Below are positions 42,322 to 63,589 of a stretch of DNA of 64,000 nt, in pieces. The stretch spans positions 91,748-155,747 of the forward strand of contig JAZSNL010000030.1 in assembly GCA_045536365.1 (NCBI GenBank), written 5' to 3'. The DNA comes from Bacilli bacterium. GTDB lineage: Bacteria; Bacillota_I; Bacilli_A; ML615J-28; CAG-313. The notes below the pieces were generated by a model that was not told the DNA's origin, did no database searches, and was given only the letters and a program-made list of their open reading frames with translations. The position numbers and the translations under genes are program-made. Every line of letters starts with the position of its first letter. Position 1 is the first letter of the stretch.

Positions 42322-45300
42322 ATGAAACTAGTCTTTGTATCATCAACATTTAAAGATATGCAATTTGAAAGAGATATGTTACATACCCATGTAATACCAC
42401 TTCTTGATTCAAAACTAACAAGATACGGTGAATCAGTAAGATTTGGTGATTTAAGATGGGGAGTAAATACAACTGAATATTCTGAAGAAGAAAGTTCAAA
42501 AAAAGTATTAAAAGTATGTCTTGATCAAATTGATGATTGTAAACCATATATGATTGTCTTTATCGGTGAAAGATATGGTTGGATTCCCTCACAAGATTTA
42601 ATTAAAAACGCCGCTATCTTAAAAGGAATAGATCATGTAGAAAATGACATTTCGGTTACCCAATTAGAAATTGAATATGGAGCTTTATTAAACCCTGACT
42701 ATGAAGGAAGAATATTATTCTATTTCCGTGAACTTGATAAAGAAGGAATGACTCCAGAAGAAAGAAAAATATATGAAGCTGAAAGCAGTCTTCATGAAGA
42801 AAAAATAAAAATCTTAAAAGAGAAAATATATAATTTATATCCTAATTATGTTAAAACATATCAAGCAAAATGGAATAAAGAAACTAAAAAAGTAGAAAAT
42901 TTAATTCCATTAATGGATCAAATAAAAGAAGATTTAGAAAAAATCTTTATTTCTGATATAGAACAATATAATTCACTTGACTGGCAAGAAAGAGCCTTAC
43001 TTGCAAGTCATGAATACTTTAAAGAAAAAGCTAAAGTATATGTAAATACTAAGACAATTCATACTAAAATAAAACAATTAAATCAAAGTGTTTCATTGTG
43101 GATGTCTCCTAATTCTCCTTGTTCATTTGAATACTATGTTGGTAAAGAAGGAACTGGTAAAACAACAAGAGTGGCATATGAATATATGAGTCACTATCAT
43201 AATTCAATTAATAAAAATGATGGTAAAATCCGTGTTGTTATTCCTTTCATTTATCAAATAGATGAATATACATCAGTTTTAGAAAATTTATATTATATTA
43301 TAATTTATCATTTAGAAAAAGCTTTAGGAATAAAACATAAAAAATATGATTATAAAGATCATAAATATTCTAATCCACCAGAAGCAGTAATTGATTATTT
43401 ATTATCATTAATTAAAAAAATAAAAAATAAAAATATTTTTGTTCAAGTAGTAATAGATAATATTAAAGTAAATGATTTCTTTACAACATTTAAAATAATG
43501 GAAGAAAAATTAAATAATTTTGAAAAGAAAACATTCTATGAAAATTTACCTATCTTTTTTACCTTTGGTATAAATGAAGAATATTTACCACCTAATACTC
43601 CATTTTTTGATATATCTGAATCATTTCCTTTAGATAAATTATATAAAGAAGAAATTGAAGAAATAATTTATAATATTTTAAAATTCTCAAGAAAAGAATT
43701 ATCAAAAAAAGTAATTAATCATTTATTATCAAAAGAACAAGCAAACGATCCATATTATTTATCACTTGTAATTAATCGATTATTAATGTTAGACTCTGAA
43801 GATTTCCAAAACATTAGAAATCTTGGAGATGGCATGGATGCGATAAACGAGTATATGATTATGATAGTAGATCAAGTAGGAGATAATGTTAAAGATATCA
43901 TTAAAGAAATAGTTAAAGAAACAGCACAAAGAATTGATTTTGATTATGTATGTAAATTCTTATCTGTAACTGTATATACAAATCTATGGTTAAAATTATC
44001 AGAATATGAAGATATCTTTAAATTTGCAAATTGGGAATATAATGAGTTAAATACTTCATTATTATTAAATAATTTAAAATATATCTTTGAAAAAAGAGAT
44101 AATAATTCAGAATATAAGATTACTAATAAAGAAGTATTAAAAGGAATAAAAGAATTTATTATTGAAAATAAATATGATTATGTATTAGATATTTTATTCA
44201 AATATTTAGATAAATTACCTAAGAATCATGAATTAAAAAATTATAGTTTACATTTTGCGATGTCAACTCATAATGGTAATTTTATTGCGGAATATTATTT
44301 AAAAAATACTAATATTGAAAAAATTAAAAAAGATGATTTAGAAACATATAAAATATATAGTGATTTTATTACAAAATTAGTAAAAGAAAAAGAATATGAT
44401 GTCTTAATTGATTTCTTTAAAACATTATGTAAGAAAAATGTTTCAGTTAGTCATTATTATTTATTATCAGCTTTAACTAAAAATAAATTAAATAAAGAAG
44501 AATACAAAGAATTTGTTGATTTCACTATCGATTTACATACATGGTTAGTTGAAAATAAACAAATTGATAATGAATTTAAAGATACAATCTTTATTTGGTT
44601 ACAACTATCTACATGTATTAATTTAGCAGAGTTAGAAACAATGATATCATTTGAAAGAGCTTTGATTATATATAACTATTGTAGTTTTAGTAAAAATAAA
44701 TTACCAAGAGAATTATTAGCAGAAGGATCAATTTTATTATTAAGAACAACATTAAGAAATATGAATGTTTTTGATAACTATGAAGTTGTTAAAAATTATT
44801 TTGAAGAAATGATTGATTTTAATGCTGAATCATTAGAAAAGGTTGTATTTAAAGATTATTATAAATATATAATTAAAGGCTATATTGCAAATTTAATTAA
44901 TAAATTAGCTTATAAAGTTAATGATGATATATATAAAAAATACCTTGCGGTATATGAAAGAACATTAAATAGTGGATGTAAGAATAATAGTTTTATTAAT
45001 ATGAATTCAATTGTTCAGGAAACATACGCAATAGGTTATTTCCATCATGCATATTTATATGTTAATTTTGATGATAGTGATTATTTAAAATCAATTATTA
45101 ATTATATTTATTCAGATAATGTATTACCATTATTAAATGATATTGATCAATGTATCTTTTCAGTAGAATATTATGATTATAAAAAAGAAGATGATGTTGA
45201 AAATATGTTATTTAGAGGATATAAAAAGACTTTGTTTTTAAATAATTATTATGATGGATATAAGAAAAATGTTTTTGTTATTATTTCAATGATTCTTGAA

Positions 45301-45819
45301 AGATTAAGTACACTTAATAGTGAAGTATTAGATGAAATATCTAATTCATTAGAAGAATTATTTATTCAAATTATTAATCATTATAATTTAGAATTTGAAA
45401 ATGGTAGTGATGAATTTATTTCTTCTGCCGCAATGGATAGTTTAGAATATTTTTCATATATAATTTCTCAATTATATTTATTTGATGAAACTGAAAGTAT
45501 TAAAAGAATATTAAATAATGTTTTAGTTTCTATTAATAATAGTTTAGAAGAATCTAATCCTTATATTAATATGATTCTTTATACTTTACTATATTCTTTC
45601 ACTGATTCTACAGATGAAGAAGACGAAGTGTATACTGATGAATTTGTGAAAAATTATGAGTTAATGGATAAAGAAAGTGATTTATATAAAAATTATAAAA
45701 AATTAATTAATGCGTGTTTATTATATATAACTGGTAGTGTTTCATTTGAAGAATATAATGAATATTTATATGAAATATATTGTTTGAAGTTTGATACTGA
45801 TAGAGTAGTTAATGGATAA
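42322..45819 (+). CDS. DUF4062-domain P-loop NTPase (NACHT/STAND-like), 1165 aa
   Basis: VFVSSTFKDMQFER, DLRWGV, FIGERYGWIP, SVTQLEIEYG (DUF4062); Walker A GKEGTGKT; Walker B VVIDN; long helical C-terminus. Confidence 0.82.
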   Translation: MKLVFVSSTFKDMQFERDMLHTHVIPLLDSKLTRYGESVRFGDLRWGVNTTEYSEEESSKKVLKVCLDQIDDCKPYMIVFIGERYGWIPSQDLIKNAAILKGIDHVENDISVTQLEIEYGALLNPDYEGRILFYFRELDKEGMTPEERKIYEAESSLHEEKIKILKEKIYNLYPNYVKTYQAKWNKETKKVENLIPLMDQIKEDLEKIFISDIEQYNSLDWQERALLASHEYFKEKAKVYVNTKTIHTKIKQLNQSVSLWMSPNSPCSFEYYVGKEGTGKTTRVAYEYMSHYHNSINKNDGKIRVVIPFIYQIDEYTSVLENLYYIIIYHLEKALGIKHKKYDYKDHKYSNPPEAVIDYLLSLIKKIKNKNIFVQVVIDNIKVNDFFTTFKIMEEKLNNFEKKTFYENLPIFFTFGINEEYLPPNTPFFDISESFPLDKLYKEEIEEIIYNILKFSRKELSKKVINHLLSKEQANDPYYLSLVINRLLMLDSEDFQNIRNLGDGMDAINEYMIMIVDQVGDNVKDIIKEIVKETAQRIDFDYVCKFLSVTVYTNLWLKLSEYEDIFKFANWEYNELNTSLLLNNLKYIFEKRDNNSEYKITNKEVLKGIKEFIIENKYDYVLDILFKYLDKLPKNHELKNYSLHFAMSTHNGNFIAEYYLKNTNIEKIKKDDLETYKIYSDFITKLVKEKEYDVLIDFFKTLCKKNVSVSHYYLLSALTKNKLNKEEYKEFVDFTIDLHTWLVENKQIDNEFKDTIFIWLQLSTCINLAELETMISFERALIIYNYCSFSKNKLPRELLAEGSILLLRTTLRNMNVFDNYEVVKNYFEEMIDFNAESLEKVVFKDYYKYIIKGYIANLINKLAYKVNDDIYKKYLAVYERTLNSGCKNNSFINMNSIVQETYAIGYFHHAYLYVNFDDSDYLKSIINYIYSDNVLPLLNDIDQCIFSVEYYDYKKEDDVENMLFRGYKKTLFLNNYYDGYKKNVFVIISMILERLSTLNSEVLDEISNSLEELFIQIINHYNLEFENGSDEFISSAAMDSLEYFSYIISQLYLFDETESIKRILNNVLVSINNSLEESNPYINMILYTLLYSFTDSTDEEDEVYTDEFVKNYELMDKESDLYKNYKKLINACLLYITGSVSFEEYNEYLYEIYCLKFDTDRVVNG

Positions 45820-60379: not shown

Positions 60380-60823
60380 AGAATCTGTAACTATACGTTA
60401 CAGATTTTTTATATTATTGAAAATATTCTTTTTTAATAATAAATAGTGTATTAAAATATACTATAAAGAATAATATAAATCATTGTTTTGAAAATTTAAC
60501 AATTTATATTTTCACAAAAATGTGAAATTGTGCTCTAATTTTTTTACAAAAATGTGAAATTTCATTCTTTTTTGCATACAAAAATGTGTGTAAAAAACTT
60601 GATATTCATTACTTAAAAGATTTTTTAAGACACAGAATATATAAAATGGAGATAGTTTTATAATAAAAAGTGTTATTTTAAACTTAAAAAAGTATTAAGT
60701 AAAAATATAAATAAACATAAGATGTTATATACGAAGTGACTAGAGCTATTACGTCAAAAAAGATATTATTATAATTTATATCGATTACAATATCAAGATC
60801 AAGAAGAAGGATTTAAAGAATAA
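60303..60823 (+). repeat. 77-bp direct repeat of the ABC gene 3' end (60303-60379 and 60747-60823; 73/77 identical)
   Basis: Direct alignment; each copy is followed by its own terminator hairpin. Confidence 0.9.
60514..60588 (+). repeat. Three direct repeats ACAAAAATGTG at exact 32-bp pitch
   Basis: Starts at 60514, 60546 and 60578. Confidence 0.8.
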
Positions 60824-60889
60824 GACCTACAATGTAGGTCTTTTTTGTTTAAATATTGAAAAAAATAATAATTTATGATATAATTAGAT

Positions 60890-61015
60890 CGGTCCACTCA
60901 TACGACCTTAAACATGGAGTGTGGAAAGGAAACGACTAGAAAACCGAGTACTGTAATTTTTATAATAGGTATCGTTATTCCATTATATTAAAAAAGACCA
61001 TTTGGTCTTTTTTTC
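60890..61015 (+). ncRNA. Candidate small non-coding RNA (family unassigned)
   Basis: TTGAAA-17 nt-(TG)TATAAT promoter at 60856-60884, GC-richer body with pairings (TCGGT/ACCGA, CCACTC/GAGTGTGG), terminator AAAGACCA/TGGTCTTT followed by Ts; no ORF with an RBS. Confidence 0.4.
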
Positions 61016-61095
61016 TTTTACTATAAAATCGACAAAATATTTTAATTTGTTATATAATATATGAGTAGTTTCAATATATACAAGGAGGATGACTT

Positions 61096-62166
61096 ATGTA
61101 TTTACAAAAAGTACAACATGATGAATTTAAAATGATATATGAAGAAATGGAAAAAAACTTTGTTTTAGAAGAAAGAAGAGACTATAAAGAAGCATATGAA
61201 GTATTAGATAATAAATTATTTAATCTTTTTCATTTAATTGAAAATGATGAAAAAGTAGGATTTATATCAATATGGGAACTTAAAGGATTTGCTTTTATTG
61301 AACACTTTGTAGTATATGAACAATATCGTAATAAAGGTTATGGTAAACTTGCGATAGAATTATTAAAACAAAAATACGATAAAATGGTATTAGAAGCAGA
61401 AACACCTAAAGATCAAATATGTATTAGAAGATTAAATTTTTATCAAAGACTAGGATTTAATATTAATACTCAATATTATTATCAACCATCATATCGAGAA
61501 AACGGTGAAGGAACTGAACTTCATATATTAAGTTATCCTACTTTACTTGATAACTTTGAATATGTAGTATATCAATTATATAGTAAAGTATATAAAATAA
61601 ACAGTATTATTAGACCTTTAACATTAGAAGATGATTTAGATCAAACTGCTAAATTAATATATGAAACTGATCCATATATTTATCCTTATTTATTTAATGA
61701 CAATAAAGAAGAAGGAATTAAAGTATTAAAACAAATGATTTTGAATGATACTATTTATAATTATAAAAATATCATAGTAGCATCATTTGAATCAAAAATA
61801 GTAGGAATAGTTGTTTTAAAGAAAACACCTATTAAAATATCATTAGAAGAAATGGCAAATAGTTTCATTGAAGCAGGCGCCATTATTGATGAAAGATTTA
61901 AAAGAGTATTTAATGAATATTATTTACCAATGGAATCAATTGATTCAGGAACATATATTGCAAATGTATGTATCGATGAAGCATACTATGGATGTTCAAT
62001 ATCTAAATATATGTTAAAACAAATATTAAAAGATGATGAAACATATCATCTAGAAGTTATTATTGCAAATAAAGTTGCGGTAGGATTATATCAAAGCTTA
62101 GGATTTGAAATAGAATATGATTATCCAGGATTCTTTGATGTACCATGTTATAAAATGAAAAAATAA
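61096..62166 (+). CDS. Tandem (two-domain) GNAT acetyltransferase
   Basis: FIEHFVVYEQYRNKGYG...RRLNFYQRLGF and YIANVCIDEAYYGCSI...AVGLYQSLGF. Confidence 0.85.
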   Translation: MYLQKVQHDEFKMIYEEMEKNFVLEERRDYKEAYEVLDNKLFNLFHLIENDEKVGFISIWELKGFAFIEHFVVYEQYRNKGYGKLAIELLKQKYDKMVLEAETPKDQICIRRLNFYQRLGFNINTQYYYQPSYRENGEGTELHILSYPTLLDNFEYVVYQLYSKVYKINSIIRPLTLEDDLDQTAKLIYETDPYIYPYLFNDNKEEGIKVLKQMILNDTIYNYKNIIVASFESKIVGIVVLKKTPIKISLEEMANSFIEAGAIIDERFKRVFNEYYLPMESIDSGTYIANVCIDEAYYGCSISKYMLKQILKDDETYHLEVIIANKVAVGLYQSLGFEIEYDYPGFFDVPCYKMKK

Positions 62167-62185
62167 AGAAACGAGGATAATTAAA

Positions 62186-63526
62186 ATGGGAAATATCGAT
62201 TTATTTATAAGCTACGAACATGAATCAAAAATAATAGCAGATAATATCTGCTCTGTATTAGAATCAAAAGGAATCCGTTGTTGGTACGCTCCTAGAGACG
62301 TTAGAGGCGATTATGCAACATCAATAGTTGAAGCAATCGAACACTGCAAAGTTTTCGTTTTAGTACTAAACCCTGCAGCATCTGAATCTCCACATGTTTT
62401 AAACGAAGTAGAAATGGCATATCAACGTATTTTAAAAGGAGAAATTACAATTGTTCCTTTTAAAGTAGAAAATGGTGTTTTCTCTAAAGCAATGGAATAC
62501 TATGTAAAAAGATTACATTGGATAGATGCCGCAAGTGATTCACTTGATAAAGCGATCTTAGAATTATATGAAAAACTAATACCAGTATTAGGAATTGAAA
62601 GAGTAACAACTAATGAAAATAATAATGATGAAAATCATGAAACTAATTTAAAAAGAAAAGTGAATCAATATTATTCAGCTGATGACTTAGTAGAAGTTAA
62701 AAGATTATATGGTGAAGAAGCATTCTTATATGATATTGAAAGACCATATTATGATCGATTATTCTATAATAAAGAAAAAGCAGTTGTTTTAGATTTTAAT
62801 GTACTTTGTCCTTATCATGCGGTAAAGAAATTTGCAGATCGTACAGAAGTATCAAAAGTAGCTTATTTAACATACAGTGAAGCTTCAGTAATGGAAGGAA
62901 ATGAAATGTTAAAACAAAATGGCGATAATGAAAATAAAAAATTCTTCCTTTTTGATCAATCTACAACAAAAGTAGAAGAAGCTTTACCTAAAATCTTAAA
63001 TGAATTAAACGCAACAGGATTTGATTTCTTAAATCTAACAATGTCAATAATGGACTTTGGAAACCCATTCAAAATCTTAAATAAAATTAAAAAATTCTTA
63101 AATCCCGGAGCAGTTGCATTTATAAGAGACGTTGATGATGGTGTAGTATTTGCATATCCTGATGAAAAAGGCTTATTTAAAGAAGTTCAAAACTTCTATA
63201 AATATGATACATTAAGTGGATCAAGAGAATCAGGAAGACAAATCTATGATTTAATGAAAAAACTAGGCGCAATCGATGTAAGATTAGAAAGATGTGGTAT
63301 TAATACAACAGGAATGGATTATCATCGTAAACACCTTGTATTTGAAAGTTGGTTTGGTTTTATTCCAAATGATTTTAAAATCATGTTAGAACGTGATCCT
63401 CAAGATAAAATTGCGAAAAAGATAGTTGAATGGTTAGATGAACATTATGATGATTTAGAAGAACAATTCTCACAACCTAATTTTATCTTTAATTCAGGAT
63501 ATGTTATTTATACAGTAAGATTTTAA
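62186..63526 (+). CDS. TIR-domain protein fused to a class I methyltransferase-like domain
   Basis: LFISYEHES...GIRCWYAPRD...VFVLVL...SPHVLNEVEMA (TIR_2 with Glu); C-terminal FDFLNLTMSIMDFGNPFKILNKIKKFLNPGAVAFIRDVDDG resembles MTase post-motif II/III. Confidence 0.8.
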   Translation: MGNIDLFISYEHESKIIADNICSVLESKGIRCWYAPRDVRGDYATSIVEAIEHCKVFVLVLNPAASESPHVLNEVEMAYQRILKGEITIVPFKVENGVFSKAMEYYVKRLHWIDAASDSLDKAILELYEKLIPVLGIERVTTNENNNDENHETNLKRKVNQYYSADDLVEVKRLYGEEAFLYDIERPYYDRLFYNKEKAVVLDFNVLCPYHAVKKFADRTEVSKVAYLTYSEASVMEGNEMLKQNGDNENKKFFLFDQSTTKVEEALPKILNELNATGFDFLNLTMSIMDFGNPFKILNKIKKFLNPGAVAFIRDVDDGVVFAYPDEKGLFKEVQNFYKYDTLSGSRESGRQIYDLMKKLGAIDVRLERCGINTTGMDYHRKHLVFESWFGFIPNDFKIMLERDPQDKIAKKIVEWLDEHYDDLEEQFSQPNFIFNSGYVIYTVRF

Positions 63527-63589
63527 ATAAAAATGGTAGTTTTCTACCATTTTTTCATTTATATGGTATAATATATTAAGGAGGTATAT

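Follow-up and report, generated by a model that had tools for sequence, protein, structure and literature searches.

What does a TIR protein do with a methyltransferase fold that seems to have lost its cofactor site, and why does its gene follow one for a pair of acetyltransferase domains? The question is raised by two adjacent genes in a 64,000-nucleotide stretch of DNA from a Bacilli bacterium (GenBank assembly GCA_045536365.1, contig JAZSNL010000030.1, positions 91,748 to 155,747 of the forward strand). We call this whole stretch the window and count positions from its first letter. The second of the two genes (62186..63526, plus strand) encodes a protein of 446 amino acids that joins a TIR domain to a class I methyltransferase fold lacking a site for S-adenosylmethionine (SAM); the first (61096..62166, plus strand) encodes a protein of 356 amino acids with two GNAT acetyltransferase domains. 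We tentatively propose, as a reading that falls somewhat short of probable, that they form a TIR conflict module that has not been described before: the dead fold would bind a small molecule, and the GNAT protein would supply the group transfer that the fold has lost.

A TIR head on a methyltransferase fold without a SAM site

The head of the protein (62186..62590, plus strand; residues 1-135) matches two Pfam models: TIR_2, which spans residues 7-119 (E = 3.6e-18; 66.7 bits, with a cutoff of 28), and TIR (2.9e-5; 24.4 bits, with a cutoff of 21.3). Across 94 aligned homologues, F7, S9, Y10, H12, C32-R37 (CWYAPR), S68, L72, N73, and E74 are invariant. The last three of these open the motif LNEVEMA (residues 72-78), in which E76 is also nearly invariant. 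E74 aligns with the glutamate in the helix WCWDELEQAY of Cat1, and from what is established for TIR NADases we take it to be the catalytic position. The head appears to be catalytically equipped, with its catalytic glutamate kept. Among solved structures, it best matches Cat1 (2e-6) and TIR-STING (5e-5). Of the PADLOC models, SAVED_TIR matches at 5.8e-7 and ThsB matches weakly (9.7e-4 and 0.012, in the TIR region only).

A linker (62591..62680, plus strand; residues 136-165), in which residues 140-148 have a predicted local distance difference test (pLDDT) score below 50, leads to the methyltransferase fold (62681..63526, plus strand; residues 166-446). Pfam matches to this C-terminal half are below threshold (Methyltransf_23, 18.4 bits, and Methyltransf_31, 16.3 bits; cutoff 27). 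An AlphaFold2 model built from a 94-sequence alignment (mean pLDDT 93.3, pTM 0.70) has strands that follow the class I methyltransferase order from beta1 to beta7, with beta1 at 199-204, beta2 at 222-229, beta3 at 251-255, beta4 at 279-285, and beta5 at 305-316. When we compared the model to the PDB with Foldseek, the top match was 3mgg (E = 1e-12, target TM score 0.70). There were 725 matches at E <= 1e-3, and the 50 best were all methyltransferase-fold proteins; 3mgg was followed by the small-molecule methyltransferases PMT, TleD, RebM, and JHAMT and by SpnF, a cyclase with a methyltransferase fold. A profile search against PDB sequences also found 3mgg (E = 2.9e-11), which has the D..G, P[ED], and GRQIY motifs after beta5 in common with the window protein.

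Three positions on the SAM side of the fold are altered. First, the glycine loop of motif I (E/DxGxGxG) is absent. At the end of beta1, residues 199-208 are VVLDFNVLCP, whereas relatives with about 40% identity have VLDLGSNDGS or VLDVGCNDGK; that is, LDFNVLCP stands in the window versus LDxG(C/S)xxG in intact relatives. Second, the ribose-binding acid at the end of beta2 is replaced by Thr226 (YLTYSE). Across the SAM-less clade described below, this position is S, T, or C, and in intact forms it is E or D, within G(L/I)(E/D). Third, the segment after beta4 is IMDFGNP in the window versus LLHLKNP in relatives, so that the histidine of the family has become Asp290. A comparison of 24 SAM-less and 36 intact full-length proteins found His290 in 100% of the intact forms and aspartate in at least 85% of the SAM-less forms. 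G205 and G209 are specific to intact forms, and Q177->E and C338->Y also split the two groups.

An earlier note on this DNA had described a TIR_2 domain with a putative catalytic glutamate in LNEVEMA and a C-terminal half with class I methyltransferase-like elements, in which VVLDFNVLCP replaces the SAM-binding glycine loop; it had called the fold catalytically dead and had named structure prediction with Foldseek as a check. These descriptions agree with our results. TIR_2 is above its cutoff and E74 is invariant and aligned with the Cat1 glutamate; the structural comparison found a class I methyltransferase fold; the alignment with the 40%-identity relatives confirmed the replaced loop; and three SAM-side positions changed together in a single clade.

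One origin, unchanged constraint, and exchanged heads

We then considered whether the SAM-less fold is a remnant on its way to being lost. It keeps the lid and substrate-side residues that are invariant in the family. At twenty positions of the C-terminal domain, the SAM-less and intact groups share a residue that is at least 90% conserved in each; among these are E170, R173, D315, D317, D318, P325, D326, G345, R347, R351, and W416. Also, the ratio of divergence in the C-terminal domain to divergence in the TIR domain is 1.30 in SAM-less pairs versus 1.27 in intact pairs, which argues that constraint on the fold is unchanged relative to its intact relatives. By this measure the SAM-less fold is not decaying, and because of this a retained binding or regulatory role is reasonable.

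An indexed search found 256 full-length homologues, all of about 435 amino acids, and an exhaustive search with the C-terminal domain found 367 clusters at 50% identity (E <= 1e-3), 235 of which had E <= 1e-10. As representatives we used those of the 150 best C-domain matches with at least 270 amino acids (124 proteins), and 65 of these 124 contain TIR_2. Other family members are stand-alone enzymes of about 285 amino acids with an intact glycine loop, and several have N-terminal domains of about 200 amino acids that are of no recognized type. In P0162, the methyltransferase module lies behind a deaminase head of the dCMP/MafB19 type. In P0243, P0256, P0263, P0295, and P0298, it has a C-terminal extension that looks, by eye, like a GNAT domain and a CxxC...CxC zinc ribbon; Pfam confirmed the GNAT domain in P0243 and P0263, and Acetyltransf_1 is found in 4 of the 124 representatives. 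The hosts include gut Bacillota (Christensenellales-like metagenome-assembled genomes, Scatosoma, and Coproplasma), Acholeplasmatales, Anaeroplasmatales, Atopobiaceae, one Bacteroides, and one archaeon of the Methanomethylophilaceae. The spread of the family across Bacillota, Mycoplasmatota, Actinomycetota, a Bacteroides, and a methanogen is patchy and transfer-like.

In a maximum-likelihood tree of 63 full-length proteins, the 24 SAM-less members of the window type form one clade (support 100/99), whose sister group is intact proteins from Atopobiaceae. A tree of 187 C-terminal domains places 45 SAM-less domains in one clade (support 0.999), with P0176 as a stray outside it; this single-clade result counts P0161 (which has glutamate) and P0212 as SAM-less, and the raw Fitch count for histidine versus aspartate is four changes. 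Judging by these trees, the SAM-less fold, as defined by loss of the glycine loop, loss of the beta2 acid, and His290->Asp, arose once.

Two lineages of TIR heads occur within the SAM-less clade, one of the window type (FISYEH..CWYAPRD..HVLNEVE) and one with FISYRRDGG..DWVRxEIE. The similarity of the two halves of the protein can run in opposite directions. P0156 is 23% identical to the window protein in the TIR domain and 45% in the C-terminal domain, and P0075 is 71% identical in the TIR domain and 34% in the C-terminal domain. Therefore, the dead fold is the constant unit, and the TIR domain is exchangeable. In three cases (L009/L021, L010/L024, and L008/L027), we saw an intact and a SAM-less paralogue on separate contigs of one genome.

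A dedicated acetyltransferase partner

Both halves of the protein encoded upstream are matched by Pfam's Acetyltransf_1/7/10, in two stretches each. Domain A (about residues 1-165) has an intact motif A (YRNKGYGKLA); YRNKGYG fits the acetyl-CoA loop pattern Q/RxxGxG/A, and the Acetyltransf_1/7/10 matches are above threshold. Domain B (about residues 172-356) belongs to the partner family described below, and its motif A is deviant (YYGCSIS versus YRGxGVG in most partners). The AlphaFold2 model (pLDDT 93.0) gives domain B a confident GNAT fold. Domain A is most like 3ey5, an uncharacterized GNAT from Bacteroides (TM score 0.89 from Foldseek, sequence E = 6e-21), and domain B resembles small-molecule and N-terminal acetyltransferases (4m85, 1u6m, SpeG, AAC(6'), and puromycin NAT). 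No tRNA-acetylating toxin was among the 50 best Foldseek matches of the GNAT protein.

To examine gene neighborhoods, we fetched 80 loci from genomes; open reading frames in high-GC loci were identified with a GC3-weighted caller and tblastn. In all 24 of the window-type SAM-less loci, the gene immediately upstream, on the same strand, encodes a GNAT of one specific family, GNAT-B (about 200 amino acids); its spacing ranges, by these gene calls, from a 55-nt overlap to a 148-nt gap. GNAT-A is either a separate gene upstream or is fused to GNAT-B, as it is in the window and in L011, L038, L039, L043, and L056. We found just 34 homologues of the window GNAT in an index of 5.8 billion proteins, and the contigs that carry them agree in size with those of the hits to the TIR-methyltransferase. 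These results indicate that the window GNAT is a dedicated partner of the TIR-pseudomethyltransferase.

More distant SAM-less lineages have other arrangements. In L083, a double GNAT lies 1 nt upstream, and in L084 a GNAT-B gene overlaps the upstream end and a second GNAT gene lies downstream. L087 has a divergently oriented GNAT of another family 31 nt away, and L090 and L091 have a third type of GNAT in a convergent and overlapping arrangement. In L089 (867-3065), the SAM-less TIR-methyltransferase P0213 has no GNAT next to it; its place, 21 nt upstream, is taken by the gene for an intact methyltransferase from the same family that stands alone (211 bits). We interpret L089 as a predicted pseudoenzyme-enzyme pair that replaces the GNAT pairing. 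Overall, the GNAT protein (or, once, in L089, the intact methyltransferase paralogue) looks like a functional replacement for the lost methyl transfer and not like a passenger. The support for this would lie in the long retention of the partner and in the variety of replacements, and not in repeated origins.

GNATs are not exclusive to SAM-less forms. We rejected this idea after a wider jackhmmer search and Pfam placed unrelated GNATs beside about seven intact forms, and we therefore narrowed the SAM-less-specific claim to the dedicated GNAT-B family. GNATs are in fact enriched within 500 nt of intact forms: 7 of 86 open reading frames, versus 3 of 356 farther away (odds ratio 10, p = 6e-4). 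As for the methyltransferase-GNAT fusions, a phmmer search with GNAT-A and GNAT-B found no match in the representative set, and by Pfam the fusions carry a different GNAT family. We also noticed a group of genes that recurs beside intact TIR-methyltransferase genes (L035:3977-9947, L036, and L052): they encode a protein of 700 amino acids, a ParA/MinD-like protein of 296 amino acids with a weak match to PDC-M28B, and a protein of 783 amino acids, and are followed by a GNAT-B-like gene.

These results bear on another explanation, put forward in the earlier note, in which the TIR-pseudomethyltransferase is a sensor and effector in one polypeptide: the dead fold would be a ligand or phage sensor whose occupancy or oligomerization switches an NAD-depleting TIR domain (NAD is nicotinamide adenine dinucleotide), and the GNAT protein would be a regulator or accessory. 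We judge this to be somewhat unlikely. It fits with the TIR domain being most similar to TIRs of the effector type (the Cat1, TIR-STING, and SAVED_TIR matches, versus about 1e-3 for ThsB) and with a constant C-terminal domain that has exchangeable heads (two TIR lineages, a deaminase, and the unassigned N-terminal domains). Also, most intact family members stand alone, and the window has no effector partner. However, a sensor-effector would not explain why the SAM-less clade has retained a transferase across deep divergence and changing orientation, or why methyltransferase-GNAT fusions exist. Furthermore, there is no signal synthase beside the gene: we found neither a CD-NTase nor Cas10 in the flanks in the window or in the sister-strain locus.

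A two-gene transcription unit

The two genes are separated by just 19 nt (62167-62185), and we found no terminator between them. Upstream, a terminator-like hairpin (60990..61013, plus strand; a 10-pair stem and then a T run) ends the preceding unit and marks the 5' boundary. It is followed by a promoter-like site (61029..61058, plus strand; TCGACA-18-TATAAT, 11 of 12 positions matching), which was identified by consensus match alone, and by the ribosome-binding site of the GNAT gene, AAGGAGGA (61082-61089, plus strand). Another terminator-like hairpin with a T run (63529..63554, plus strand), 3 nt past the stop codon of the TIR gene, marks the 3' boundary. Because of the flanking terminators, the upstream promoter-like site, and the absence of a terminator between the genes, the pair is predicted to be a discrete bicistronic transcription unit. 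The earlier note had placed a double GNAT gene 19 nt upstream, had suggested that it may be co-transcribed, and had named homolog neighborhoods as a way to check the GNAT linkage. The spacing and both GNAT domains of the 356-residue protein were found as described, a single transcription unit is predicted here, and the linkage holds in every window-type locus.

We also considered whether such a tight unit, with genes that overlap or nearly so, might be a toxin-antitoxin-like pair: a constitutive NADase toxin would be held in check by a GNAT that acetylates the protein or its product, or the roles would be reversed. Toxins are well established among both GNATs and TIR NADases. In L086, a TIR-methyltransferase gene lies between genes for a protein of 2,816 amino acids and an RHS-repeat protein, which also fits. 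However, the GNAT folds resemble small-molecule and N-terminal acetyltransferases and not, within the 50 best matches, tRNA-acetylating toxins; no small antitoxin-type open reading frame is present at the locus; and intact TIR-methyltransferase relatives mostly lack a partner, which is hard to reconcile with an unchecked toxin. We consider a toxin-antitoxin pair to be very improbable.

RyR-domain proteins next to relatives

Three families of neighbors, which we call c4, c31, and c11, recur beside relatives of the TIR-pseudomethyltransferase. Members of c4 and c31 are membrane proteins that are homologous to each other (hhalign, 99.4%) and have an RyR-like tail and an apparent GxGxxG Rossmann motif; the motif was seen by eye and has no profile match. 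Members of c11 have an RyR domain and a SLOG-like tail, again recognized by eye and with no profile match. Pfam's RyR model matches c11 (4.7e-11) and c31 (1.8e-5), and c4 matches both at the profile level. Of 58 full-length loci, 16 encode a protein of these families within the flanks that we fetched, and in 11 of them it is immediately adjacent. L084 (c4-like), L090 (c31-like), and L091 (a protein of 94 amino acids with just the RyR domain) also have RyR-type neighbors. The earlier note had remarked that no ThsA-type partner was visible; this is correct for the window but not for the relatives, as about one locus in four has an RyR membrane protein or a SLOG-like protein adjoining the gene.

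In phages, proteins with an RyR domain have been shown to bind or cleave 2' cyclic ADP-ribose (2'cADPR) and 3'cADPR (2026 preprint, PMC13232231), which makes the host RyR-domain proteins plausible readers of a TIR product, by analogy. If so, the family might use chemically tailored signals derived from NAD. The TIR domain would make an ADP-ribose-type molecule; the methyltransferase fold would methylate it (in intact forms) or would present it for acetylation by the GNAT (in SAM-less forms); and RyR membrane proteins would be the receptors. In this full form, we think the scheme is quite unlikely to be right.

Some individual loci with RyR-type genes have unusual arrangements. L012 (5264-11311) has, in tandem, genes for a c11 protein (RyR and SLOG-like tail), an intact TIR-methyltransferase, GNAT-A, GNAT-B, and a SAM-less TIR-methyltransferase. 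A c4-type RyR-like membrane protein in L025 (11323-13908) has a weak match to a GNAT domain at its C terminus (Acetyltransf_7, 3.8e-4), which would be another physical link between GNATs and this gene set. The RyR-only protein of L091 (4117-4401) is 50% identical to the tail of one c31 membrane protein, and its gene is two genes upstream of a SAM-less TIR-methyltransferase, among small genes and a helix-turn-helix regulator. A sponge of the phage type is one possibility for its role, and a host module is another.

Conflict-type surroundings

The surroundings of the pair are of the conflict type, because a strain-variable cassette that encodes a TIR-TPR-GNAT protein adjoins it and because relatives are found in TIR-rich islands. 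Two sister strains (L081 and L082) are 98% identical to the window and collinear with it except for a 4-kb cassette between the genes for an ABC exporter and the GNAT protein. The cassette (L081:4712-8692) encodes a minimal nucleotidyltransferase of 259 amino acids (DUF4037/NTP_transf_2) and a TIR_2-TPR-GNAT protein of 1,058 amino acids. At this site (60380..60890), the window has a remnant of about 460 bp, comprising about 367 bp of unique DNA and a duplicated end of the ABC gene. In Logan contigs from gut metagenome runs, we found three alleles of the site: empty (X2), with the cassette (X1, with 3,996 letters inserted at 60881/60891), and the window form (X10). The GNAT and TIR genes are kept in all four of the strain variants seen.

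Near relatives, the defense-type genes include a PycTIR-like effector, an AAA_21 protein of the AbiEii type, WYL, and Cas1. L084 (971-13320) is a TIR-rich island with four further TIR genes. The island holds a TIR_2 protein followed by an Ion_trans channel, a c4-like protein, and the TIR-pseudomethyltransferase with a GNAT on each side, as well as a CAP12/PycTIR-like protein and a TIR-Sel1 protein of 1,541 amino acids.

Could the pair instead belong to ordinary metabolism, as a nucleotide- or NAD-tailoring pathway (a glycosidase plus methyl or acetyl transfer) with no role in conflict? This would fit with the persistence of the pair while the neighboring cassette varies, with the many housekeeping genes that flank relatives, and with the stand-alone methyltransferases and methyltransferase-GNAT fusions that lack a TIR domain. 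However, the family is patchy across phyla, and some genomes have paralogous pairs. It is recurrently adjacent to other TIR genes, RyR-domain proteins, AbiEii-like ATPases, WYL, and Cas1, and its domains are shuffled with heads of the toxin type. We consider a purely metabolic role to be very doubtful.

How the module might work

We return to the conflict module with a replaced transferase, which is the reading that we tentatively favor. The dead fold would still bind the small-molecule ligand of the family, and the GNAT protein would supply the lost group-transfer step in trans, with acetyl in place of methyl. The molecule acted on would be either the NAD-derived product of the TIR domain (signal tailoring) or a ligand by which the activity of the TIR domain is controlled. 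In relatives, the product would probably be read by the RyR-domain membrane proteins. The 64-kb window encodes no RyR, SLOG, or Macro partner, and so the output at this locus would be NAD depletion, or the partner would be encoded elsewhere.

That absence also weighs against the proposal, as do several other points. First, the conclusion that SAM is no longer bound is drawn from sequence. Second, the acetyl-CoA loop of domain B is deviant, so the catalytic competence of this domain is uncertain. Third, L086 is SAM-less but has no transferase gene as a neighbor. Fourth, the SAM site was lost and GNAT-B gained on one branch; the two changes are therefore a single event and do not provide repeated independent evidence. 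Fifth, His70 replaces the usual tryptophan of the WxxxE motif and is nearly invariant in TIR domains of the window type (the swapped FISYRR-type heads retain DWVRxE). Finally, the flanks of relatives mix defense-like genes with common housekeeping genes, and neither PADLOC nor NCBIfam names a system for the GNAT gene or the TIR-methyltransferase gene.

Comparison with known systems

In Thoeris systems, a TIR protein (ThsB) makes a signal that is bound by an effector, and types I to XI have been described (preprint 10.64898/2025.12.03.692087). The family studied here is similar in that it has TIR domains with the catalytic glutamate, is found in TIR-rich islands, and, in about a quarter of related loci, has a neighbor with a domain of the type that binds nucleotide signals (RyR, or by eye the SLOG-like tail of c11). 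Unlike Thoeris, the TIR domain of the window family is fused to a methyltransferase fold, the constant partner is a GNAT, and the window contains no effector; PADLOC's ThsB models match only weakly (1e-3). TIR-SAVED and TIR-STING of CBASS (cyclic oligonucleotide-based antiphage signaling systems) and Cat1 of type III CRISPR systems (CARF-TIR) also combine a TIR domain and a ligand-binding type of domain in one polypeptide, and they give the best sequence matches to our TIR domain. However, the partner domain here is a class I methyltransferase fold and not SAVED, STING, or CARF, and no cyclase or Cas10 is nearby.

The C-terminal domain shares its fold order and the motifs after beta5 with small-molecule methyltransferases like 3mgg, which is a structural-genomics protein from Methanosarcina mazei (TleD, RebM, JHAMT, and PMT are similar by fold). 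It differs from them in that the glycine loop, the beta2 acid, and the histidine after beta4 are replaced and in that the Pfam matches are sub-threshold. Pairs of a pseudoenzyme and an enzyme, and methyltransferase folds that do not methylate, such as the SpnF cyclase, offer a parallel in which the fold is kept for another job, and L089 has a dead fold beside an intact paralogue. Unlike in those pairs, the usual partner here is an acetyltransferase, whose fold is unrelated, and the dead fold forms one protein with a TIR domain. Lastly, the phage RyDEP proteins (PMC13232231) contain the same Pfam RyR domain as the host proteins beside family members. Unlike the phage proteins, those of the hosts are large and are either membrane or multidomain proteins; none is encoded in the window, and binding of TIR products by them is suggested by analogy.

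In full-text literature searches, we found no description of TIR-methyltransferase fusions or of their link to GNAT or RyR proteins. The words methyltransferase, GNAT, and RyR are absent from a systematic survey of TIR systems (preprint 10.64898/2025.12.03.692087). The pair looks like an undescribed two-gene variant of TIR-based antiviral systems. New here are the definition of the dead fold by three positions and its single origin, the equal constraint on SAM-less and intact forms, and the swapping of heads, together with the variety of replacement transferases (including an intact paralogue), the methyltransferase-GNAT and deaminase-methyltransferase fusions, and the strain-level variation beside the locus.

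Immunity in bacteria, plants, and animals depends centrally on TIR enzymes, and new molecules continue to be added to those that they are known to make. This family, with hundreds of clusters from gut anaerobes, ties a TIR head to the chemistry of methyl or acetyl transfer and often has RyR-domain proteins beside it. The SAM-less clade can be seen as an experiment of nature, in which the site for the cofactor has been lost, selection appears to be unchanged, and a separate transferase is nearly always adjacent; the two-gene unit is also small enough to be cloned easily. The proposal predicts acetylated or methylated products derived from NAD, or an NADase activity that is controlled by the transferase. 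If the signals are indeed tailored, immune signaling by modified nucleotides would gain a new class, and the SAM-less clade would have swapped SAM for acetyl-CoA by way of a pseudoenzyme scaffold.

Other features of the window

The next gene downstream (63590..) encodes, in the sister strain, a membrane protein of 148 amino acids and has its own extended -10 box (TGnTATAAT) and ribosome-binding site. We considered this protein as a candidate effector partner and rejected it: no homologue is found beside any relative, and the terminator and its own promoter separate it from the pair.

Elsewhere in the window, a gene at 42322-45819 (plus strand) encodes a protein of 1,165 amino acids with DUF4062 at its N terminus (E = 2.6e-13) that may be a further sensor of the immune type. 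Within 60856-61013, about 105 nt before the terminator at 60990-61013, there is a strong promoter-like site (TTGAAA-17-TATAAT, with TG).

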